A stretch of DNA of 64,000 nucleotides. Origin: Patescibacteria group bacterium. GTDB taxonomy: Bacteria > Patescibacteriota > Minisyncoccia > UBA6257 > 2-01-FULL-56-20. Made by a program: the position numbers and the translations under genes. The DNA is taken from assembly GCA_038063755.1 (NCBI GenBank), contig JBBTUL010000008.1:17910-81909 (forward strand). The letters are read 5' to 3'. Positions 21,829 through 30,995 of the stretch are shown here, piece after piece; the stretch's first letter is position 1; each line of letters starts with the position of its first letter. The notes under the pieces are model-generated. The model was not told the DNA's origin. It saw nothing but the letters and a program-made list of their open reading frames with translations, and made no database searches.

Positions 21829-21866
21829 GCCACCTTAGCTCAGCGGTAGAGTCCCGCTTCGTGCGG
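21829..21866 (+). pseudogene. tRNA 5'-half-like fragment: acceptor strand GCCACCT plus a D-arm identical to that of the downstream tRNA-Thr, then a non-canonical CCCGC-TTCGT-GCGGG hairpin.
   Basis: The TAGCTCAGCGGTAGAG D-arm is shared with the tRNA-Thr(TGT) 70 nt downstream; no T-arm follows. Confidence 0.35.
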
Positions 21867-21942
21867 GATTGCGCTTTGTGGCTAAGGGCTTACCCTTAGG
21901 CAAAGCGGGAACAACTCTGGCGCAAGGTCCCGTTTAAAATCT

Positions 21943-22017
21943 GCCGGGATAGCTCAGCGGTAGAGCAACTCTTTTGTAAAGAGTAGGTCGCGAGTTCAAA
22001 TCTCGCTCCCGGCTCCA
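21943..22017 (+). tRNA. tRNA-Thr(TGT)
   Basis: Cloverleaf folded by hand: acceptor GCCGGGA/TCCCGGC, D-arm GCTC-AGCGGTA-GAGC, anticodon arm ACTCT-TTTGTAA-AGAGT, T-arm GCGAG-TTCAAAT-CTCGC, encoded CCA. Confidence 0.85.
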
Positions 22018-22081
22018 GGATAGGCAGATTCTATACGGGATAAAGAGAAGGTCCCCGGTTCAAATCCGGGAGGTGGCTCCA
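22018..22081 (+). pseudogene. tRNA 3'-half-like fragment: variable loop AGGTC, T-arm CCCGG-TTCAAAT-CCGGG, 3' acceptor AGGTGGC, discriminator T and CCA, but no matching local 5' half.
   Basis: AGGTGGC is the perfect complement of the GCCACCT acceptor strand at 21829-21835, ~250 nt upstream. Confidence 0.35.
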
Positions 22082-22154
22082 GTTGGGCAGGCGACGCAAG
22101 CTCCGGGCTTGTGTCGGTCTCTCGTTTTTTGCTACTATTGTGTTCGTACTAAGA

Positions 22155-22226: not shown

Positions 22227-22326
22227 CACGTTAGACAATCTTGACCGCTATGGGCGGGATTAGATTTTCTTACGCCCCGCCGTCGGCGGGGCACTTTATC
22301 GTTTCTTCATCACGAGCCGGGAGAAT

Positions 22327-22599
22327 ATGGTCGTGTATTTTGTTTATATCCTGAAATCCTTAAAAACCGGTCATTATTATGTTGGATATACCAACAACAT
22401 GGCCCGGCGAATGGCCGAACACAACGGGGGAAAGACCCCATCGCTCCGGCGTCATATACCTCTTGAAATTGTAAAAATTGAGGTGTATTCTTTCTACGGT
22501 GAAGCGAGGGAGAGGGAGCGGCAAATAAAGAAATATAAGTCCGGAACCGCTTTCAGGAGAGTGTTGGGGTCTCTACCACCGCCCTCTGGCGGGGTGTAA
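22327..22599 (+). CDS. GIY-YIG (URI) domain nuclease-family protein, YhbQ-like
   Basis: VYILKS..G.YYVGYTNNMARRMAEHN is the GIY-YIG signature; 90 aa. Confidence 0.7.
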   Translation: MVVYFVYILKSLKTGHYYVGYTNNMARRMAEHNGGKTPSLRRHIPLEIVKIEVYSFYGEARERERQIKKYKSGTAFRRVLGSLPPPSGGV

Positions 22600-22636
22600 G
22601 ATTCTGTAATCCACTTCGCTTAAACAGAAATCTAAC

Positions 22637-22816
22637 ATGGCAAAAGCTAAATATGCGGACAATCTTATAGGGCTTAAATGCGGCGTTTGCAGCCGTCGGA
22701 ATTACTATACCCGCAAGAACAAAAAGAAGGTTGAACGAAAGATTCAGCTTAAGAAGTTTTGCGCTTGGTGTCGGAAGCAAACCGCGCATAAAGAAGGCAA
22801 GATCTCCGGAAAATAG
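22637..22816 (+). CDS. rpmG: 50S ribosomal protein L33. It is under the 60-aa cutoff, so absent from the supplied ORF track.
   Basis: MAKAKYADNLIGLKCGVCSRRNYYTRKNKKKVERKIQLKKFCAWCRKQTAHKEGKISGK: CxxC-N22-CxxC zinc ribbon and the bL33 pattern, in the classic position upstream of tRNA-Trp. Confidence 0.8.
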   Translation: MAKAKYADNLIGLKCGVCSRRNYYTRKNKKKVERKIQLKKFCAWCRKQTAHKEGKISGK

Positions 22817-23015
22817 TCCTTGGAGAACCGGGCTCGATTATCTCCTGCGAGGAATCGGCCCTGCATCTCGGACGTGGCGCTCCGCTTTGCGGAGTCCAAG
22901 CCGCTGCGTCCTCCGATAGCTTCTCCAAGAACTATTTTCCTCCGTACAGAGCAGACGGACAGGAAGGAGGGGAGGATTGGCGACCTTCTTTTTTTGTATT
23001 ACGCTAGAAGCGAAC

Positions 23016-23048
23016 GGGAGCTTGGTTTAGTGGTAAAACAGCGGTCTC
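23016..23048 (+). pseudogene. Exact 33-nt duplicate of the tRNA-Trp 5' half (acceptor, D-arm and start of the anticodon stem)
   Basis: GGGAGCTTGGTTTAGTGGTAAAACAGCGGTCTC is identical to 23169-23201; it then diverges into hairpins. Confidence 0.6.
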
Positions 23049-23084
23049 TCCCGATGCCCGACCATAGGTCGGGACCGGGATCCT

Positions 23085-23123
23085 CGATTTTCTAGAAATC
23101 ATCGCATATGATTTAGAAAATCG
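23085..23123. repeat. Strong near-perfect hairpin (16-18-bp stem) between the tRNA-Trp stub and the intact tRNA-Trp
   Basis: CGATTTTCTAGAAATCAT-cgcat-ATGATTTAGAAAATCG. Confidence 0.6.
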
Positions 23124-23168
23124 GGACAAAACCGCCAAAAGGTTTAGAGGTTCTACGAAGTTAGATAT

Positions 23169-23239
23169 GGGAGCTTGGTTTAGTGGTAAAACAGCGGTCT
23201 CCAAAACCGCGGTCGGAGGTCCGATTCCTCCAGCTCCCG
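23169..23239 (+). tRNA. tRNA-Trp(CCA)
   Basis: Acceptor GGGAGCT/AGCTCCC, D-arm GTTT-AGTGGTA-AAAC, anticodon arm GCGGT-CTCCAAA-ACCGC, T-arm GGAGG-TCCGATT-CCTCC. Confidence 0.85.
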
Positions 23240-23387
23240 CATTAGATTTTGTCACGCGTAGCGTGCTACAGAATCTTATGCCCCGCTATCGCCGGGGCAA
23301 ACCCACGAGAGAGCTGTGATTCATTTCATCTCTTTCCAAGAAATATATTTTGGTTATACTTCGTATATTCTCGAATCTCAGCAAAAA

Positions 23388-23472
23388 ACCTGTCAAAACT
23401 GTCCCGATTTTGTACGAGCAAAGCGAACAAACAAAATCGAGGATCCCGCCAGCGGGGCGGGACAAGGGAAGT
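23388..23472 (+). promoter_or_regulatory. Conserved ~85-nt leader upstream of Cys-rich paralog 1; a second copy lies at 25268-25354.
   Basis: Two hairpins: CGATTTTGT-N17-ACAAAATCG and CCCGCC-agcgg-GGCGGG. Both leader copies and the first ~20 codons downstream are nearly identical. Confidence 0.5.
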
Positions 23473-25254
23473 ATGAATAAAGAAATTAAAACCTGCCAAA
23501 GCTGCAAAAACCAATTCACGATCGAACCGGAGGATTTTGATTTCTACAAAAAAATAGCCGTACCGCCACCGACATTTTGTCCGGAATGCCGCCTGGCTCG
23601 CCGGATGAACTTTCGAAACGAGCGATCAATGTATCGCCGGACGTGCGATAAATGCCAGAAGAACATCATCGCCATCTATCCCGAAGGCAGTCCTTTGAAG
23701 ATATACTGCCAGCCGTGCTGGTGGTCCGATGCATGGGACCCGATGGCCTACGGATTCGATTACGATTTTTCCAAAAACTTTTTTGAGCAATTCAAAGACC
23801 TGGCCGAAAAGGTCCCGGCCATGAGCGATTTCAATACCAGCTCCTTGAACTCTGACTACTGCAACTACAGCGCCGATTGTAAGAACTGCTATCTCTTCAT
23901 TGGGGGTCGCCAAAGCGAGAACGTGTCTTTCGCAAACAGAGTGGTCACATCCAAGGATTCCCTGGATTTATATACCGGCGAGAAGTTGGAGCTGTGCTAT
24001 GAAGATGTGCAGTGCACCAATTCCTACCGTCTGTTCTTCAGCCGCTACTCGGAAGATTGCAGTGATTCCTGGTTTTTGTATGACTGCAAGAACTGCCAGA
24101 ACTGCTTCGGCTGTACCAATTTGAGGGGGCGGCAATATTACATCTTTAACCAGCCATATTCCAAGGAGGAATATACGAAAAAGCTTTCCCAGATGAACCT
24201 GGGTAGCTTCGCGGCGTTGGCAAAGGCAATGGAACGAGCCAAAAAGCAGACCTCCGGTGCCATCCATCGGTACGCCCATATCATTAACTCGCCAGGCAGC
24301 ACCGGCGACAACCTCTACAACGCCAAAAATTGTAAAGCGTGCTTCGACCTTATGGGTACGAATTCCGAGAACTCGAAGCACTGCCATTACTGCGTGGTCG
24401 GCAACAAGGACTCATATGACCAGTACGGGTCGCCGTACGCCGAGGATATGTACGAGACAATCGCCGTCGGTTTCGAATCCAACGAGAATTCGAAGTATCG
24501 TTTCAGTTATTTTATAAAAGGCAGCAGCGATATCTGGTATTCGTACAACTGCGTCTCCTCTCACAACCTGTTCGGCTGCGTCGGATTGCGCAACAAGGAA
24601 TACTGCATCTTTAACAGGCAATATTCCAAAGAGAAGTATGCCGCGCTCGTGCCGCGTATCGTGGCGCACATGGACCAGATGCCGTACACAGACAGGGGCG
24701 GGCGGCAATACAAATATGGAGAGTTCTTTCCGGCGGAACTATCTCCGTTCGCGTATAACGAAACCATCGCCCAGGAATATTTTCCGCTGACCAAAGTGGT
24801 AGCGACCGGCAGGGGACTCGCCTGGAAAGATGCAGAGGCGAGGAATTACCAGGTGACCAAGGCGGCCGACGACCTTCCGGACCACATTAAAGATGTTGAT
24901 GATTCCATCCTACAAGAGATCGTTGGTTGTGAGCATGCCGGCGCGTGCAATCACCAATGTACGACCGCTTTCCGTGTCACCCCGCGCGAACTCCAGTTCT
25001 ACAAGCAGATGGAGCTACCCCTGCCGCGCGCCTGTCCCAACTGCCGCCACTCCCTTCGACTAGAACAGAGGAACCCTCTTAAGCTTTGGAAAGGAAAATG
25101 CAAATGCGGTGGCGGAGTGTCAGGTGTGTACACCAATACCACCACTCATTTTCACGGAACAGATTCCTGCCCCAACACGTTCGAGACATCCTACGCCCCC
25201 GATCGACCCGAAATCGTCTACTGCGAACAATGCTATCAGGCGGAAGTTGCATGA
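23473..25254 (+). CDS. Large cysteine-rich protein (~590 aa, more than 35 Cys, many CxxC pairs and an internal repeat), family unknown; paralog 1
   Basis: Start chosen at MNKEIKTCQSCKN directly after the conserved leader. Internal repeat: ...NC.NCFGC.NLR...Y.I.N..YSKEEY... occurs twice. C-terminal CPNCRH...YCEQCYQAEVA. Confidence 0.7.
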   Translation: MNKEIKTCQSCKNQFTIEPEDFDFYKKIAVPPPTFCPECRLARRMNFRNERSMYRRTCDKCQKNIIAIYPEGSPLKIYCQPCWWSDAWDPMAYGFDYDFSKNFFEQFKDLAEKVPAMSDFNTSSLNSDYCNYSADCKNCYLFIGGRQSENVSFANRVVTSKDSLDLYTGEKLELCYEDVQCTNSYRLFFSRYSEDCSDSWFLYDCKNCQNCFGCTNLRGRQYYIFNQPYSKEEYTKKLSQMNLGSFAALAKAMERAKKQTSGAIHRYAHIINSPGSTGDNLYNAKNCKACFDLMGTNSENSKHCHYCVVGNKDSYDQYGSPYAEDMYETIAVGFESNENSKYRFSYFIKGSSDIWYSYNCVSSHNLFGCVGLRNKEYCIFNRQYSKEKYAALVPRIVAHMDQMPYTDRGGRQYKYGEFFPAELSPFAYNETIAQEYFPLTKVVATGRGLAWKDAEARNYQVTKAADDLPDHIKDVDDSILQEIVGCEHAGACNHQCTTAFRVTPRELQFYKQMELPLPRACPNCRHSLRLEQRNPLKLWKGKCKCGGGVSGVYTNTTTHFHGTDSCPNTFETSYAPDRPEIVYCEQCYQAEVA

Positions 25255-25354
25255 ATACCGAGATCCAAACCTGCCGAAACTGTCCCGATTTTGTACGAGC
25301 AAAGCGAATAAACAAAATCGCGGATCCCGCCAGCGGGGCGGGACAAGGGGGAGC

Positions 25355-25453
25355 ATGAATAAAGAAATTAAAAATTGCCAAAATTGTCATAAAGATTTCA
25401 CGATCGAACCGGAGCCCTTCGGCGGACTCAGGATTTCACTTCGTTTTACCTGA
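25355..25453 (+). pseudogene. Truncated N-terminal stub (32 codons) of a further Cys-rich paralog, fused to a second copy of the leader
   Basis: MNKEIKNCQNCHKDFTIEPEPF matches the paralog N-termini, then diverges and stops. Confidence 0.55.
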
Positions 25454-25458
25454 TATCT

Positions 25459-27195
25459 ATGCCAACATCTGAAAATAAAGTTTGTCAGAATTGCAAAGGA
25501 TCGTTCTTGATAGACGCTCAAGATTTTGATTTTTACAAAAAAATTGATGTGCCGCCGCCGACATTTTGCCCGGAGTGCCGCAGGCAGAGGCGGTTTGCAT
25601 GGAGAAACGAAAGGACCTTGCACAAGAGGGAATGCGATCTTTGCCATAAAGGTCTTATAGCCCTGTACCCGGCCGGAACCACTTTTCCGGTCTATTGCAG
25701 TACCTGTTGGTTTTCGGATAAGTGGGACCCGCTGTCTTACGGCACTGCCTTCGATGTGTCGAAATCCTTCTTCCAACAGTTCAAGGAACTCAGCGCTCGG
25801 GCTCCGCGCTTGGCGCTATGGGTCCAGCAATGCACCAATTCCGATTACACCAACCAGTCCTATGCAAATAAAAATGTCTATCTTTCTTTCGCGCTGAGGG
25901 ACTCCGAGGATACGGCCTATTGCGCCAGAATGACTCAGGGCAAACAATGTCTTGACTGTACGTACACTTATCACTCAGAACTTCTTTACGAATGCTTGTA
26001 TGCCGACAAATGTTATCGCGGGCGTTGCTTGGAAGAAACAGAATCCTGCGTCGAAAGTGGATTCCTTTCCAACTCTCGTAATTGTCAGCAGTGTTTTGGG
26101 GGCATCAACCTGCGCTCGGCGTCCCATGTGTTTTTTGGCGAACAACTTACTAAAGAGGAATACGCCAATCGAATCAAAGACCTGAACCTTGGCAGCCGGA
26201 AGACCCAAGAAGAACTTAGTCGCCGCTTCGCGGAACTGAAATCGAAAGGCATATTCCGTTACGCGAACCTTATCAATACCGTAAATACCCAGGGAGACCA
26301 TCTTTCGAACGCGAAGAACTGCTACTATGCGTTTGATGGTTTCGATCTAGAGAATGCCAGGCATTCCTCATGGACTTTCACCAGTAAGGACATTTCGGAC
26401 TGTTACGGCGCGGGAAGTTGTGAATTGACATATGAAGGTATCGGCGTGGAAGAGGTCAACAATGTGAAGTTCTGCAACGTGACCGATGGCTCCAATAACG
26501 TGCAATATGGCGACATGTGTTCGGCGTCCAGCAATCTGTTCGGTTGCGTGGGGCTTCGCAGTAAGGAATACTGCATTCTGAATAAGCAATATTCCAAAGA
26601 AGAATATCAAAAGTTGGTCCACGAGATCGTAAAACAGATGAACGATATGCCGTATCGTGACAAGAAGGGCAGAGAATACCGTTACGGGGAATTCTTTCCG
26701 GCAGAACTGTCTCCTTTTGCCTATAATGAGACAATCGCCCAAGAGAACTTTCCTCTCTCTAAGAACGAGATAGAGGCGCAGGGATATTTTTGGAGAGAGC
26801 CGGAGAAAAGGGAATACGCCGTGACTATTGCCGCCTCGGAAGTTCCGGACACGATTGCTGACGTAACCGGTTCTATCTTGGAAGAGACTATTGCCTGCGC
26901 GCACGGTGGGACTTGCAACGACCAATGTTCTTCCGCCTTCCGTATTATTCCCCAAGAACTCCAACTGTATCGCCAGATGAATATACCGTTGCCTGTTCTT
27001 TGTCCCAACTGCCGTCATTATCAGCGCTTGGCCAAGCGAAACCCTCTGAAGCTTTGGTCGCGCCAGTGTATGTGTAGCATCAAACACCCGCAGCATTCGG
27101 AAGGACGATGTCCAAATGAATTTATGACCTCTTACGCCCCCGACCGCCCCGAGATTGTGTATTGTGAAGCATGTTACCAGTCGGAAGTCGCATAA
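25459..27195 (+). CDS. Large cysteine-rich protein, paralog 2 (578 aa)
   Basis: Aligns with paralog 1 along its full length (N-terminal CQNCKGSF..DFDFYKKI.VPPPTFCPECR; twin FGCVGLR.KEYCI.N.QYSKEEY repeats; C-terminal CPNCRH...YCEACYQSEVA). Confidence 0.75.
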   Translation: MPTSENKVCQNCKGSFLIDAQDFDFYKKIDVPPPTFCPECRRQRRFAWRNERTLHKRECDLCHKGLIALYPAGTTFPVYCSTCWFSDKWDPLSYGTAFDVSKSFFQQFKELSARAPRLALWVQQCTNSDYTNQSYANKNVYLSFALRDSEDTAYCARMTQGKQCLDCTYTYHSELLYECLYADKCYRGRCLEETESCVESGFLSNSRNCQQCFGGINLRSASHVFFGEQLTKEEYANRIKDLNLGSRKTQEELSRRFAELKSKGIFRYANLINTVNTQGDHLSNAKNCYYAFDGFDLENARHSSWTFTSKDISDCYGAGSCELTYEGIGVEEVNNVKFCNVTDGSNNVQYGDMCSASSNLFGCVGLRSKEYCILNKQYSKEEYQKLVHEIVKQMNDMPYRDKKGREYRYGEFFPAELSPFAYNETIAQENFPLSKNEIEAQGYFWREPEKREYAVTIAASEVPDTIADVTGSILEETIACAHGGTCNDQCSSAFRIIPQELQLYRQMNIPLPVLCPNCRHYQRLAKRNPLKLWSRQCMCSIKHPQHSEGRCPNEFMTSYAPDRPEIVYCEACYQSEVA

Positions 27196-27260
27196 CATGC
27201 GGAATCCCGATGCGGGTCGGGGCGAACAATGCTATCAGGCGGAAGTCAGTTAAAAGCATT

Positions 27261-27788
27261 ATGGAAACTTACGGAATAAATCCAAATGTCGAGTCGCAAC
27301 CTCCGGACATTCTAGAGAGAATAAACACGGCGTTGGCAGGTTTGGGCAGTACCGCTAAATGGAAACGCGCGCCGAAATTCGAACAAGAATACAATCCCTT
27401 GCGCGGAAAGACTGTGATCATGGTAGATGATGCGCAGGGAGTTCTGGAGGCGTTTGCACCCACCCTCATGGTTGCCACGGAAGGCAAGGCCGTGCTCATT
27501 CTATTTAATGGGCAAAGTGCCGAAGAGTTGGCTGCCGAGATCCAGGCAAAGAAGGCCGATATCGTACTCCTTGATTACCATCTAAGCGAAAGCATTAAGG
27601 GTGCCGCAGTGGGCAGGAAACTACTTGGCGGAGGATTCGAAGGCAAGCTTTTCGGCTTTTCTTCCGATCCGGACACTGTTCGGGCCTTTAGGGATGCCGG
27701 CGTAAATGATTGCATTTCGAAGGAGGCAGGGTCTCCGGAAAAGTCGGTGAAGGATTTGGCTCAAAGATTAGGAACAGAGATTACTTAA
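27261..27788 (+). CDS. Stand-alone response-regulator receiver domain protein (CheY-like), with no output domain
   Basis: KTVIMVDDAQG...DIVLLDYHLSE...GFSSD...CISK: acidic pocket, phospho-acceptor Asp, S/T and K in register. The internal Met was chosen because upstream codons overlap a decayed repeat. Confidence 0.6.
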   Translation: METYGINPNVESQPPDILERINTALAGLGSTAKWKRAPKFEQEYNPLRGKTVIMVDDAQGVLEAFAPTLMVATEGKAVLILFNGQSAEELAAEIQAKKADIVLLDYHLSESIKGAAVGRKLLGGGFEGKLFGFSSDPDTVRAFRDAGVNDCISKEAGSPEKSVKDLAQRLGTEIT

Positions 27789-27798
27789 AAACCAAATA

Positions 27799-28593
27799 AT
27801 GACCATCCACTACATCGGCCTTTCTTGTTTCCTGATCGAGAACCAGGCAGGATATCGAATTCTTATTGATCCATTCAACGATGCACCAGAGTGGATTTTG
27901 GGCCCGAACTTTCCCAAAGAATTTAAAGGCGCCCCCTTTGGTGCGAATATCGTTCTTATGTCGGAACCAGATGCGGACCACGCATATGCCCCAGGCGATT
28001 GGTTGCTTAATGCCCCCAAGACGAAACCAAACAGCGATCCCTTCCCGGACCTGAATCTGCGAGGAACAGTTGTTTACGAATGGAACGGCGACACAAACAT
28101 CGCTTGGAGTTATACGGTAGACGGCGTGCATCTGGTGCATCTTGCGGACAACGCTCATGTCTTAGAACCGAAACAACTGGAGGAGATTGGGAAACCCGAC
28201 ATCCTTTTCATGTCTCCTTCGAAACCGGACCTTGCGGGCAAGGAAGATGTGACAACCATGAAGAATATCGATCTTCTCAAGCCAAGTGCGGTTATATGGG
28301 CTCATCACCTTGCCCCCAAGAATCTGCCGGACACGGGAAACGGCGATGTCCTTAGGGGGTACTTCCGAAATTACTTCCGCGAAAATGCGTCGACCAACGC
28401 AGGTTATAAGGGCGAGAGCAGTTTCATGGAACTATGCTACATTCTGGAAAATGCGACGAGGTTGAACAGGACGTATAACGGGGTAGTCCTTAAGGTTCCA
28501 ACCCTGGAGATTACCCCGGAGTTTTTGGCCCAGTCGGCGAAGCCAACTTCGTATCTTTTTGCCAGCATGCTGGCTTCATCGAGGATAGAATAA
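27799..28593 (+). CDS. MBL-fold metallo-hydrolase-like protein
   Basis: ILIDPFND...MSEPDADHAY...VHLADNAH resembles the metallo-beta-lactamase-fold metal-binding pattern; specific function unknown. Confidence 0.5.
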   Translation: MTIHYIGLSCFLIENQAGYRILIDPFNDAPEWILGPNFPKEFKGAPFGANIVLMSEPDADHAYAPGDWLLNAPKTKPNSDPFPDLNLRGTVVYEWNGDTNIAWSYTVDGVHLVHLADNAHVLEPKQLEEIGKPDILFMSPSKPDLAGKEDVTTMKNIDLLKPSAVIWAHHLAPKNLPDTGNGDVLRGYFRNYFRENASTNAGYKGESSFMELCYILENATRLNRTYNGVVLKVPTLEITPEFLAQSAKPTSYLFASMLASSRIE

Positions 28594-28812
28594 GTTCGAG
28601 GCCCTAAACCTAGATATCTTAAACAGTCCCAGCCAACCAACCTCAAGGGATACCAACGGGGTTCGAGCAGCTCTAGCTCCAGACCGACATGCGCCGCTCT
28701 TTACGATTATTATCGTGGACGAGGGGTCTTCTTGGGGCGGCTCTGATTCTATAGTGGACAATCACGCGGTTTTTGATAAACTGCAAAAAGCATTAGTAAA
28801 AAGGGGATCGAG

Positions 28813-29163
28813 ATGTTCCTACGGCTTCTACCGGATTCGTGGATTGTTCGGTTCTACCTGCGCGCAGGCGCTATCGCGGGGGATATAGCAAGTTACGCGG
28901 CTTGCGGAGACGATGCTGGAGCTTTTGACCGATGGATCAAGAAGCTTGCCAAGTGGGAGAGAGAATACGTTCGCAGGGGATACCGGACCATTTCCATGAG
29001 CGATTTTCAAAGTTATGGAGGGTACGGAGTTTCGCTTGACGGGAAAGTCCGAGCGAAGCGCGATGTCGATGAGGAGCCGATTTTTCATGCGGGAGAACTC
29101 CTTCGTATCGTGGGAAAGCTTTTCCGGGAAAAGAAAACTTCGAAAAAAGCGGTTGAGAAATAA
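28813..29163 (+). CDS. Hypothetical protein, 116 aa
   Basis: ORF followed by a terminator hairpin; no recognisable family. Confidence 0.35.
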   Translation: MFLRLLPDSWIVRFYLRAGAIAGDIASYAACGDDAGAFDRWIKKLAKWEREYVRRGYRTISMSDFQSYGGYGVSLDGKVRAKRDVDEEPIFHAGELLRIVGKLFREKKTSKKAVEK

Positions 29164-29186
29164 AGGCGAGAAAATCGCCTTTTTAT
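29163..29186 (+). terminator. Rho-independent terminator
   Basis: GGCGA-gaaaa-TCGCC plus TTTTTAT. Confidence 0.5.
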
Positions 29187-29206
29187 ATTAAAAAATCGGC
29201 GAGTAT

Positions 29207-29638
29207 TCACCGATTTTTTTTATTCTTTTTAACAAGCTCCATTTCCGGAGTGAGACAAAGCGCATCTTTCTCCTTCTTGCAGAAAGGACACTTGTACTTA
29301 ATTTCGAAGCTGAGGACGTGAGATTGCTTTCTCTCCCGCTTTCCACCTAGATATCTGTTCTCGTAATCCTCGTCGGCTGGTTCCGGCTTGCGGACCCGAA
29401 CGATTCTCCCAACCGCGCGAAACTTTTGGCTTGGGTGTTGTAAATTATGGCAATAAACAAAACGATTGAGCTGAACCGTATCTCCGAGAGAAAAAATCTT
29501 TTCTTCGACAGGTTTCTTTTCACATCTCAGGGCTTCTTTTTTGCTTGGATGACGAGTTTTACAAACTTCGCATTGGTACCAAACAATCCTCTGCACGATT
29601 TTTTTCAACTTTCCTCCGAATGTTCCAATGACCTTCAC
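29207..29638 (-). CDS. Hypothetical small zinc-ribbon-like protein, 143 aa
   Basis: Two Cys clusters (CEVCK..C, CPFCKKEKDALC); K-rich; convergent with the upstream gene. Confidence 0.4.
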   Translation of the reverse strand: MKVIGTFGGKLKKIVQRIVWYQCEVCKTRHPSKKEALRCEKKPVEEKIFSLGDTVQLNRFVYCHNLQHPSQKFRAVGRIVRVRKPEPADEDYENRYLGGKRERKQSHVLSFEIKYKCPFCKKEKDALCLTPEMELVKKNKKNR

Positions 29639-29708
29639 ATATTATATCAAAGGGCGAGAAGAAGCCAAATAACGAAAGCCGCTTTGACAAATGTGTTTTC
29701 CGAGTAGC

Positions 29709-30206
29709 ATGATGAAAGAAGTTCGCGTCGTGTTTGAAAGAGGGGATATGGCGACGGAAAAGAGGCTTGCCGATCTAAGGGCTGGTTTTTCGAGGCACCC
29801 GTCTGTCGTGGCGGGCGATGCCTCGCTTCAAGCGCTTTCGGAGGGGTACGCCGAAATTGAGATGGTCGTTTCGGAGAACATGCTTGTAGTGGGCGACCTT
29901 CCTCCCGGACTTTTTGCGCAGGGAGGTTTTGTAATCGGGGTGCTCCCGAACTTCGCAGGAGTTTATGCGGCGATGACTCTTATACAGGGGCACGCGCTTC
30001 TTGTGGCAGTAGACGGAGTTCGAGTGATGAGGCCATCCCTTGCGGGGGAGAAGCTTCGAGCGAGTGCGCACGCCGAACGTGATCCGAAAAACAACGACAA
30101 CATCAGCGTCTCGTGGACTGTCGAGTCGGTCGAGGGCGGTGAGGTGAAAGCGGTAGGATACTTCACCTATCGAACGAAGCGATCAGACAGAATCGGTAGG
30201 CACTAA
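29709..30206 (+). CDS. Hypothetical protein, possibly hotdog-fold-like
   Basis: ORF with a plausible internal Met start; weak resemblance only. Confidence 0.35.
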   Translation: MMKEVRVVFERGDMATEKRLADLRAGFSRHPSVVAGDASLQALSEGYAEIEMVVSENMLVVGDLPPGLFAQGGFVIGVLPNFAGVYAAMTLIQGHALLVAVDGVRVMRPSLAGEKLRASAHAERDPKNNDNISVSWTVESVEGGEVKAVGYFTYRTKRSDRIGRH

Positions 30207-30215
30207 GAGACAGAA

Positions 30216-30240
30216 CCCGGCACAAGCCCGGGTTTTTATT
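30216..30240 (+). terminator. Rho-independent terminator
   Basis: ACCCGG-cacaag-CCCGGGT plus TTTTTATTT. Confidence 0.65.
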
Positions 30241-30296
30241 TGTATAAACCAGTTTTTACCACAGTGGGCCGTAGAAGAAAAGCTTCATAAGGGCGG

Positions 30297-30324
30297 TTGA
30301 CGAAATCCACCCCTTCTATATACT
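30297..30324 (+). promoter_or_regulatory. Promoter for the rplJ-rplL unit
   Basis: TTGACG, 16-nt spacer, TATACT. Confidence 0.45.
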
Positions 30325-30470
30325 AGACAGGTATTCTTAAGACCGTAGGCGGCCTAGAGAAATGGGCATAAGCACCTACCGAGGACTTTGCCGGAAGCAT
30401 TCTGGCGCGGTCTTGTGGAGCACAAGCCGTTTTTATTTCGGCAAAAGGTCGATACGCGAAAAATGAAAGA
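30325..30470 (+). promoter_or_regulatory. Structured 5' leader of rplJ, a likely L10(L12)4 autoregulatory leader
   Basis: ~145-nt untranslated leader with hairpins and an attenuator-like CTTGTG-gag-CACAAG plus CCGTTTTTATTT just before the start codon. It has the position and architecture of the L10 leader; the sequence-level match is not verifiable here. Confidence 0.4.
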
Positions 30471-30995
30471 ATGAAAACAAAAGCACAAAAGCAAAGTGAG
30501 CTGAAAGACGCAGAAGCACTCTTGAAGAACAGTAAGAGTCTGCTTTTTGCAGATTTTGGTTCAGTGTCGGCAGAGAGCCTGCGTATGCTTCGAAGAGAGG
30601 TTTCCGCAAACGGCGGATCATTTTTGGTTTTAAAGAAGCGCCTTTTAAACGTGCTCTTGAAATCAAAAGGAATCGAATATGACGTGCGCGAATTCTTCGG
30701 TCCGGTTGGAACAGTTTTCGTCTCGACGGATACGCAAAGTTCGAGCGCGGCACTTTTCCGATTTTTCAGAGATCTCGCCGGGACGGACGTAAAGGCCCGC
30801 GAGGTGAATGTAAAGAAGATTCTTGGCGGGTACGATCTCGAAGGAAAGGCAGTTATGGCTCGTGACGAAGTAATGATGCTTGGCACGTTGCCTCCGCGAG
30901 AAGTGCTCCTGGGTCAACTTTTGGGTACGCTTGCCGGTCCCATTCGCTCATTTTTGTATGTCTTGAGCGAACAGTCGAAAAAGGTCGCGAACTAA
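30471..30995 (+). CDS. rplJ: 50S ribosomal protein L10
   Basis: uL10 fold pattern, directly upstream of rplL. Confidence 0.9.
   Translation: MKTKAQKQSELKDAEALLKNSKSLLFADFGSVSAESLRMLRREVSANGGSFLVLKKRLLNVLLKSKGIEYDVREFFGPVGTVFVSTDTQSSSAALFRFFRDLAGTDVKAREVNVKKILGGYDLEGKAVMARDEVMMLGTLPPREVLLGQLLGTLAGPIRSFLYVLSEQSKKVAN

Follow-up and report, generated by a model that had tools for sequence, protein, structure and literature searches.

The zinc fingers of the zf_Tbcl (PF13451) and zf_Tbcl_2 (PF23477, equal to TIGR04272) families are described as “probable treble clef” fingers and form domain families without a known function. Their CxxC...CxxC spacing is shared by the end modules of two proteins, P1 and P2, whose genes lie side by side in a 64,000-nucleotide stretch of contig JBBTUL010000008.1 from a Patescibacteria group bacterium (the whole stretch is hereafter called the window) and which we assign to the F family described below. 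Such fingers cover less than one-third of an F protein of 590 amino acids (aa), and the F core has no model. When compared with left-handed beta-helix acyltransferases, gamma-carbonic anhydrases, insect antifreeze proteins, and CsgA, F proteins score far below significance; they lack the acyltransferase active site, and their zinc-ribbon caps and duplicated solenoid-cap-helix unit have no counterpart in these beta-solenoid proteins. The VirB2 pilin genes of Patescibacteria also form same-strand arrays, of 2 to 11 diverged paralogs (PMC12102498), and the F arrays follow an ATPase resembling type IV coupling proteins (T4CPs). VirB2 pilins, however, are small membrane proteins of high variability, whereas F proteins are large, cytoplasmic-looking, putative zinc proteins that are conserved across species.

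The two F genes are accompanied by copies of a double-hairpin palindromic element. Like Rickettsia palindromic elements, REP/BIME repeats (repetitive extragenic palindromes and their mosaics), and miniature inverted-repeat transposable elements (MITEs), this element is small, non-coding, and multi-copy, with terminal inverted repeats of 8 nucleotides (nt) and covarying hairpins, and it is sometimes read in frame (rsmH) or supplies a start codon (uvrA-like and leuS-like genes). Unlike them, it lies almost only at gene ends, together with partial gene-end copies of 25 to 45 nt, prefers the start codons of one family, is associated with GIY-YIG nuclease genes and no known transposase, and is not in Rfam. 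A further comparison is with tRNA-targeting integrative elements, whose classic crossover site is the anticodon loop: a tRNA-Trp stub in the window ends in that loop and the intact tRNA is regenerated, but the segment between is about 120 nt long, carries no integrase, and duplicates the 5' rather than the 3' half of the tRNA. Of interest here are a major uncharacterized protein family of Patescibacteria, for which an ATPase is a candidate partner, and an undescribed hairpin element of gene ends.

The F family and its architecture

P1 and P2 are members of a very large, ancient, and uncharacterized Patescibacteria family. A word-indexed search returned at least 7,984 significant homologs among 8,000 candidates, typically 575 to 600 aa long and 50 to 62% identical, and a profile search covering 1.84 billion cluster representatives exhaustively yielded 4,857 clusters (50% identity) at an E value of ≤1e-3 and 2,177 at ≤1e-30. 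At least 584 F loci were confirmed in species-representative genomes, and orthologs from different orders share 55 to 62% identity. Named homologs are all “hypothetical” or “uncharacterized” and almost all from Patescibacteria (Nomura-, Lipton-, Staskawicz-, Jorgensen-, and Paceibacteria and Minisyncoccia among the listed matches); the UniRef label of the members is “Uncharacterized protein”, and a protein identical to P1 is already on record (P0001). No homologs were found by tblastn in 50,697 phage records or 72,556 plasmid records, and matches to PHROGs were at chance level only. Nor did we find a description of the family in the literature on cysteine-rich or zinc-ribbon proteins and CxxC motifs in Patescibacteria, the candidate phyla radiation (CPR).

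An initial annotation, made by a model from the sequence alone, had reported two adjacent paralogs of about 590 and 578 aa, each with more than 35 cysteines and a twice-repeated internal module, and had left them outside any known family, radical-SAM, ferredoxin, and metallothionein proteins included. The two intact open reading frames (ORFs) stand, at 593 and 578 aa and 49% identity over their full length, and so does the richness in cysteine, although the count is exactly 35 in each (about 6% of residues). The P1 ORF as called mechanically begins further 5', at a TTG at 23350; the ATG start used here gives MNKEIKTC. The family is indeed uncharacterized but neither rare nor private. The annotation had agreed to give way to a confident profile match; none came up, and profile and sequence searches with P1 and P2 gave nothing significant in Pfam, NCBIfam, PHROGs, PADLOC, or PDB. 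In particular, no radical SAM, ferredoxin, or metallothionein match was found for either protein in Pfam or NCBIfam, and one family member gave a chance-level match to Radical_SAM_N (E value, 0.017). The 56 aligned members likewise gave nothing significant against Pfam, and their joint profile gave nothing significant against PDB, where the sole match was a nanobody (E value, 1.1).

Against zf_Tbcl (cut-off, 24 bits), P2 scores 15.9 bits (E value, 0.013) and P1 gives no match. Sub-threshold matches to it (E value, ≤0.1) occur in 19 of the 56 members (best, 9e-4), and to zf_Tbcl_2 (cut-off, 27 bits; 36 bits for TIGR04272) in 10 of the 56 (best, 3e-4). One listed homolog (P0112) has PF13451 on record, and none scanned here reaches the Pfam cut-off. 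As judged from these scores, the F proteins resemble zf_Tbcl and are not members of it.

The predicted structure (AlphaFold2, 56-sequence alignment; pLDDT, 82.2; pTM, 0.81) has helix/strand zinc-ribbon-like modules at both ends, while residues of about 120 to 230 and 265 to 385 are modeled as irregular coils of the kind typical of solenoids. The N- and C-terminal modules are homologous to each other (residues 1 to 90 versus 481 to 593; hhalign probability, 98.7%; E value, 3e-15), and the internal module is duplicated, as had been noted at first (residues 119 to 262 versus 264 to 402; probability, 99.8%; E value, 1e-28). In the modeled layout, a treble-clef-like zinc ribbon and a second ribbon would be followed by two beta-solenoid modules rich in Cys and Asn, each closed by a cap and a helix, then by an 80-residue domain and a second ribbon pair. 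The 80-residue domain is highly conserved (YGEFFPxELSPFAYNETxAQ). Among 183 members, the stretch YGEFFPxELSPFxYNETxAQ, the ribbon ends, and the solenoid caps (NLFGCxGLRNKxYCIxNxxYxKEEY) are the most conserved parts and the solenoid bodies the least. The mean column identity of F proteins is 61%. Conserved Cys/His sets are found in the N-terminal part (C8/C11/C36/C39 and C58/C61/C79/C82), in the solenoid region (C196/C205/C208/C211/C214, C287/C290, and C360/C369/C378), and in the C-terminal part (C486/H488/C492/C496, C521/C524/H526, and C543/C545/C566/C584/C587), and the extreme C terminus is conserved and acidic.

F proteins are soluble-looking and about 68 kDa in mass, with an isoelectric point (pI) of 6.8 for P1 and a family median of 6.3, and the ribbon modules are mildly basic. 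No hydrophobic or transmembrane segment and no nuclease or other catalytic motif was found in them. A Pfam match to the hexapeptide repeat of left-handed beta-helices is absent, with fold scores far below significance. All fold matches were below significance (E value, >1e-3); weak ones include antifreeze and curli solenoids, and the viral library yielded only small zinc-ribbon proteins and fingers of HNH nucleases.

Ancient paralog arrays and an associated ATPase

Tandem arrays of 2 to 10 ancient paralogs, in housekeeping contexts and often translationally coupled, are the norm for F genes. In a tblastn survey of 85 loci from other genomes, almost all species-representative (L numbers denote loci and contigs), we found up to 10 tandem copies in 17 kb (L020 and L038), nine in L062, and six each in L058 and L077. 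Arrays are usually on one strand, 196 of 198 full-length copies sharing the strand of the anchor copy. The distance between adjacent copies is ≤30 nt in 41 of 111 pairs, and 12 pairs overlap by 4 nt (ATGA); in L088, four copies overlap start to stop between a glycerate-kinase-like gene and a PPDK gene. The genomic position varies, e.g., beside SmpB and ArgRS genes, between ftsW and murG (L006), or after genes for LeuRS and an RF-1-like protein. Nearly all copies (147 of 152) have their nearest relative in another species rather than among the paralogs of their own locus (median identity, 58% versus 44%), and the best pair within a locus never exceeds 60% identity. Thus, the copies are long-retained and separately conserved paralogs rather than recent duplicates.

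This age argues against the proposal of the initial annotation that the array is a fast-turnover, diversifying accessory locus, possibly for defence or surface functions, in a tRNA-flanked hotspot. In favor of such a locus, the array sits with unrelated accessory genes between rpmG/tRNA-Trp and rplJ, the region is dense in stubs and repeat elements and has a GIY-YIG gene, and one F copy is truncated. On the other side, (i) the family is enormous, its orthologs keep 55 to 62% identity, and the same arrays occur in housekeeping operons elsewhere, (ii) no PADLOC defence model matches P1 or P2 at an E value of ≤1, and (iii) neither protein has a signal peptide or transmembrane segment, with no test having been aimed at secretion signals. 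Furthermore, the mismatches between the repeat copies at the array junctions (see below) involve all four bases when read by eye, rather than adenine only, and no reverse transcriptase is among the neighboring genes, so that a diversity-generating retroelement is rejected; an integron is rejected as well, no integrase being among those genes. We regard the hotspot proposal as largely refuted and very improbable.

Clustering of flanking ORFs showed that the second most frequent flanking family is a P-loop ATPase of the TrwB/TraD/HerA type, within the HerA/FtsK superfamily, with 59 genes in 32 of 84 loci. It passes the Pfam cut-offs of TrwB_AAD_bind (23 to 56 bits; cut-off, 20.5), T4SS-DNA_transf (23 to 29 bits; cut-off, 20.1), DUF87/HerA, and TraG-D_C and remains below the NCBIfam equivalog cut-offs, which makes it a distant member of the type IV coupling proteins; it weakly resembles the DNA translocases TraD and CedD. 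The long forms carry a genuine zf_Tbcl_2/TIGR04272 finger (CxxC-x17-CxxC; 43 to 46 bits), and a CxxC-x17-CxxC finger has been found experimentally to bind zinc in small proteins of Methanosarcina (PMC12704099). Among the 111 arrays with a visible upstream side, the ATPase gene is immediately upstream on the same strand in 15 and within two genes in 23, where our rough estimate of chance adjacency is about 0.3% (about two such genes per genome of about 700 genes). Across genera, a recurrent order is secD, secF, a gene for a sigma70_r4/HARE-HTH protein, genes for a 450-aa membrane protein without a Pfam match and a 173-aa membrane protein, the ATPase gene, and F (L010, L019, L031, L051, L064, L077, and L080). 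In loci of Nomurabacteria (L043 to L046 and L049), dnaK and dnaJ are interspersed among the ATPase and F genes. In 2,918 Patescibacteria genomes, a 2025 survey found 5,713 VirD4-like genes, only 148 of them near virB4, and left the role of most of them open (PMC12102498).

F paralogs may be zinc-stabilized adaptors or partners of this VirD4/TraD-like ATPase, which we hold to be possible while well short of probable. The suggestion comes from the constant ribbon ends and linker, the variable solenoids, the paralogs being made together, and the frequent operon-like linkage to an ATPase with the same finger type. The ribbon ends and the linker domain would then be constant docking or assembly modules, the variable solenoid faces would give each paralog a specificity of its own, and the set of paralogs would form a panel of adaptors or partners for the ATPase, possibly hetero-oligomeric.

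The same linkage admits other roles. F proteins might be the cargo of the ATPase or of a Patescibacteria type IV system, i.e., an arsenal of secreted effectors or adhesins destined for host cells, since the arrays lie directly downstream of a T4CP-like ATPase, Cys-ladder beta-solenoids are typical of extracellular binding proteins (cf. the weak antifreeze and curli fold matches), the C terminus is conserved and acidic, and the VirB2 pilins set a precedent for paralog arrays in this phylum (PMC12102498). We find this decidedly unlikely for proteins with at least four zinc-ribbon modules and a mean column identity far above what is usual for effectors; moreover, most VirD4-like genes of the phylum are not beside virB4 (PMC12102498), and no secretion signal was noticed, again with no test aimed at one. 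A second alternative, also unlikely in our judgment, is that F proteins bind nucleic acids through treble-clef ribbons, in DNA uptake or processing or in RNA regulation, the ATPase link then running through DNA translocation rather than protein docking. The ribbon type, the mildly basic charge of the ribbon modules, the zinc-ribbon and HNH-finger matches in the viral library, and the resemblance of the ATPase to TraD and CedD speak for it, whereas the whole protein is neutral to acidic, no catalytic or nuclease motif was found, and no fold match is significant. These two are the main rivals of an adaptor or partner role, which we continue to prefer.

A double-hairpin element at gene ends

The element that accompanies P1 and P2 has the form TGTCC-CGA[hairpin 1]TCG-AGGATCC-(N)CGA[hairpin 2]TCG-GGACA and is 57 to 90 nt long (TGTCCCGA...TCGAGGATCC...TCGGGACA). 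Its ends are 8-nt inverted repeats, and its center is often a perfect palindrome, TCGAGGATCCTCGA. TGTCCCGA and TCGGGACA do not vary among the 70 copies that were aligned, in part by construction because the search pattern fixed those ends. Pairing in the variable part of hairpin 1 reaches 96.3% across these copies (80.8% in shuffles), and its covariation amounts to 123 double-change cells, a value that none of 500 shuffles attained. In its terminal inverted repeats, multiple and sporadic copies, and lack of coding capacity, the element resembles a MITE or palindromic repeat. Rfam gave no match at an E value of ≤1 for two F-linked copies and nothing for 12 further loci; the tRNA-linked copy gave only a sub-threshold match to the atpB motif (22 versus 37 bits). 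We found no description of the element in the literature on palindromic elements in Patescibacteria or CPR bacteria.

Covariance model R1 finds three copies in the 64 kb of the window, all within 2.3 kb (23047 to 25345), whereas 1.37 Mb of F-centered genome loci hold only four, all directly upstream of an F gene. In metagenome contigs, 117 stretches match the exact element pattern, against about a dozen expected by chance by our estimate. Of the unique copies, 39 of 102 are F-linked, and 29 of these 39 have both an ATG stub and an F start. The layout upstream of such genes (L037, L085, L058, and L019) consists of a short F-like start (an ATG, about nine codons, and ..TGYCARAAY), the element, about 8 nt, and the ATG of a complete F gene. 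F genes with this leader are 37 to 53% identical to P1 and thus no more alike than the whole family. The arrangement is therefore sporadic, and a leader inherited as the ancestral trait of one F subfamily is rejected. The element is sporadic and mobile-like and prefers the 5' ends of F genes with a short F-start stub.

Other genes are affected in similar ways. In L161 and L124, the element comes after a complete rpmG, and beyond it the final 14 or so rpmG codons appear a second time. In L153, a 27-nt 5' stub of a tRNA, with an acceptor stem differing from that of the intact gene, precedes the element and a complete tRNA-Val, and the tRNA-Trp of the window shows the same order of stub, element, and intact tRNA. 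At rsmH (L097, L103, and L197), a flanking A and the TG of the element form the start codon; in L097 and L197, an element of 70 or 76 nt is read in frame and adds about 24 to 26 N-terminal codons. In uvrA-like (L118 and L128) and leuS-like (L134, L136, and L167) genes, the start codon lies within hairpin 2 (ATGTCGGGACA, M-S-G-Q). A -10-like box is often found 7 to 20 nt upstream at these housekeeping gene starts. In four further unique contigs, GIY-YIG homologs occur at a distance of 110 to 450 nt from the element (about 0.2 cases expected by our estimate), and one lies 78 nt upstream of the F gene in L017. The GIY-YIG gene and the tRNA-Trp stub of the window belong to the same element phenomenon.

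Two side observations concern the extent and origin of the repeat. A smaller two-hairpin variant (CCCGACAAAAAATCGGGATCCCGACAAAAGGTCGGGAC) is present at the 3' end of a VirD4-like ATPase gene (L043, 13310 to 13346), and the pattern searched here may cover only part of the repeat family. A genuine tRNA (Rfam, 62.8 bits) fits the whole element pattern in L106 (8826 to 8899) and L163 (821 to 894); its acceptor stem reads GTCCCGA/TCGGGAC, and GAGGATCC spans the end of the anticodon stem, the variable loop, and the start of the T stem. The element may be tRNA-derived.

Around P1 and P2, the order from 23016 to 27253 is tRNA-Trp stub, inverted element, tRNA-Trp, degenerate F stub, element, P1, F stub, element, 20-codon F fragment, P2, single hairpin, and F 3' stub (Table 1). 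The repeats at these junctions were first noticed in the initial annotation and are confirmed here: the leader recurs (23386 to 23468 versus 25267 to 25349; 95% identity), as do the first codons (23466 to 23532 versus 25348 to 25414; 82% identity at the DNA level), and a 25-nt piece of the 3' end, GCGAACAATGCTATCAGGCGGAAGT, has exact copies at 25223 to 25247 and 27222 to 27246. Leader positions 144 to 169 match F-gene start codons at other loci. The fragment of 20 codons (MNKEIKNCQNCHKDFTIEPE) ends at 25414 and is followed by 44 nt of unrelated sequence before P2; it is 73% identical to residues 1 to 22 of P1 (tblastn). Only this fragment calls for a lost F copy, the other stubs being the usual signature of the element. 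Thus, a tandem array with one truncated third copy is upheld, and the earlier claim of at least three or four copies turned over by recombination exceeds the data. A promoter and terminator scan of 22600 to 27900 gave results no better than chance.

The window sequence is identical to a 108,860-bp contig of the Patescibacteria metagenome-assembled genome GCA_964357965.1. The same strain is present in Hainich groundwater samples (ERZ1292625 and ERR3858121). Two independent short-read assemblies of it are interrupted within the repeated leader, L002 stopping at 25271 and L208 beginning at 25279, so that the join of P1, stub, and P2 rests on one contig and two nearly abutting ones; a search for related strains found no close strain with a different arrangement, only identical contigs broken at the repeat. 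Breaks exactly within the repeat could point to a stub made by misassembly of the leader. However, the two short contigs almost meet, the sequence on either side matches the window at 100% identity, L002 runs 17 nt beyond the P1 stop codon into the unique version of the stub, and the two leader copies differ at many positions. An assembly artefact is therefore exceedingly improbable.

The F gene and the element could also form one selfish cassette, with arrays growing by element-mediated insertion and the family owing its multiple copies to mobility. In 39 of its 102 unique copies, the element delimits an F gene on the 5' side, F genes lie in unrelated contexts such as that between ftsW and murG, those with a leader are not one subfamily, and GIY-YIG genes adjoin F gene starts. 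Yet the element accompanies only 4 of about 200 F genes in species-representative genomes (about 2%), no locus has near-identical copies among its ancient paralogs, and the F protein has no recognizable transposase or nuclease domain. A cassette is very improbable, and we treat the family and the element as separate.

Neighboring genes and overall interpretation

As first annotated, rpmG, tRNA-Trp, a GIY-YIG gene, and a tRNA-Trp stub precede the array, and an MBL-fold gene follows it. Still further downstream are rplJ and rplL; the receiver-domain assignment falls short of the Pfam threshold. The tRNA-Trp stub is 100% identical to 23169 to 23201 (flank-repeat z-score, 23.8). About 7.6 kb (22816 to 30471) separates rpmG/tRNA-Trp from rplJ and contains the two F genes, the receiver-like and MBL-fold genes, and three unannotated ORFs; secE, nusG, rplK, and rplA are not among the gene calls in this interval. 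The annotated ATG of the receiver gene (27210) is inside the CCCGATGCGGGTCGGG hairpin, and the stub of the F 3' end, read in a different frame, provides its first 14 or so codons; the gene may in truth start at a second ATG, at 27262. GC-rich hairpins at 22262 to 22300 and 22570 to 22600 (CCCCGCCGTCGGCGGGG and CACCGCCCTCTGGCGGGGTG) bracket the GIY-YIG gene and resemble hairpin 2 of the element copies of the window (CCCGCCAGCGGGGCGGG). Further upstream, two tRNA-like halves with complementary acceptor strands (GCCACCT... at 21834 to 21875 and ...AGGTGGCTCCA at 22050 to 22082) flank a complete tRNA-Thr(TGT) at 21943 to 22017. Called by neither ARAGORN nor Rfam, the halves may be a disrupted or split tRNA or a further pair of gene-end stubs.

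Table 1. Features in and around the F array, with positions in the window
Feature	Position	Strand	Remarks
Small GIY-YIG nuclease gene, 90 aa	22327-22599	+	Pfam PF01541 match
rpmG (ribosomal protein L33)	22637-22816	+	Identified from translation
tRNA-Trp stub	23016-23048	+	First 33 nt of tRNA-Trp; ends in anticodon loop
Element copy 1	23047-23128	-	Between tRNA-Trp stub and intact tRNA-Trp; R1 56.9 bits, E 3e-12
Intact tRNA-Trp (CCA anticodon)	23169-23240	+	ARAGORN; Rfam tRNA 65.7 bits
Degenerate F-gene start stub	23378-23399	+	..QQKTCQN, no ATG; abuts element copy 2
Element copy 2 (P1 leader)	23400-23464	+	R1 56.3 bits, E 5e-12
P1, 593 aa	23473-25254	+	F family; predicted zinc-ribbon-capped beta-solenoid protein; ATG start
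F-gene start stub	25251-25280	+	ATG..MNTEIQTCRN; stub ATG overlaps P1 stop codon
Element copy 3	25281-25345	+	R1 53.7 bits, E 2e-11
Remnant of third F gene	25355-25453	+	First 20 codons, then unrelated sequence and stop
P2, 578 aa	25459-27195	+	Paralog of P1
Half-element, single CCCGA..TCGGG hairpin	27206-27221	+	Just 3' of P2 stop; pattern search
Receiver-domain protein gene	27210-27788	+	Pfam Response_reg 27.4 bits, below cut-off of 30.2
F-gene 3' stub	27222-27253	+	..CEQCYQAEVS*; first 25 of 32 nt identical to P1 3' end

The best joint explanation, which comes close to being probable and stops short of it, is that of an ancient F family with an ATPase-adaptor role and a separate double-hairpin element behind the extra junctions. 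Several points weigh against it. With regard to the family, (i) adjacency to the ATPase was measured in loci picked for containing F genes and holds in only 14 to 21% of arrays, (ii) no VirD4/TraD-like ATPase is present in the window itself, and (iii) zinc binding is putative, inferred from motifs. With regard to the element, (iv) the pattern was derived from F-linked copies, so that their share is possibly inflated, (v) the upstream stub ORF stays open as far as the F start codon in only 16 of 29 cases, (vi) the duplicated gene end lies apart from the element, unlike in a simple target-site duplication, and stub and gene start have often diverged, (vii) the stub in L153 derives from a different tRNA than the intact gene, and (viii) the sense and antisense strands fold equally well, which leaves an RNA role neither supported nor excluded.

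Some simpler accounts of the element are rejected or find no support. A conserved upstream ORF with obligatory translational coupling is rejected on account of the read-through in little more than half of the cases, and a simple long target-site duplication on account of the non-abutting duplicates and the foreign L153 stub. AAAAC flanks both element ends in L085 only, the duplicates elsewhere being gene ends of 25 to 45 nt that are set off from the element. Element-associated gene-end replacement, or recombination at the element, fits better than target duplication. A leader that is a riboswitch or another known RNA is unsupported, given the lack of an Rfam match and the equal folding of both strands; because of the latter, the structure may act as DNA.

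In a bolder and somewhat unlikely version, F arrays, orphan VirD4/TraD-like ATPases, and the two small membrane partners would constitute a hitherto unrecognized, phylum-specific translocation or processing system, in which zinc-ribbon-capped beta-solenoid F proteins would serve as specificity adaptors or cargo, and the element would represent a new mobile class that targets conserved gene ends while keeping the genes functional.

The element is small, seated at gene ends, and travels with GIY-YIG nucleases, leaving stubs of conserved genes behind. Assemblies break at it, the stubs that it creates pass falsely for “pseudogenes”, and the predicted start codons of genes are displaced; it is likely to fragment Patescibacteria assemblies at F genes. 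Patescibacteria genomes are smaller than 1 Mb, and many spend up to 17 kb (about 2 to 3% of the genome) on F genes, a family without a Pfam model, a solved relative, or located literature. Its position behind VirD4-like ATPases offers a concrete handle on both components in these host-dependent organisms.

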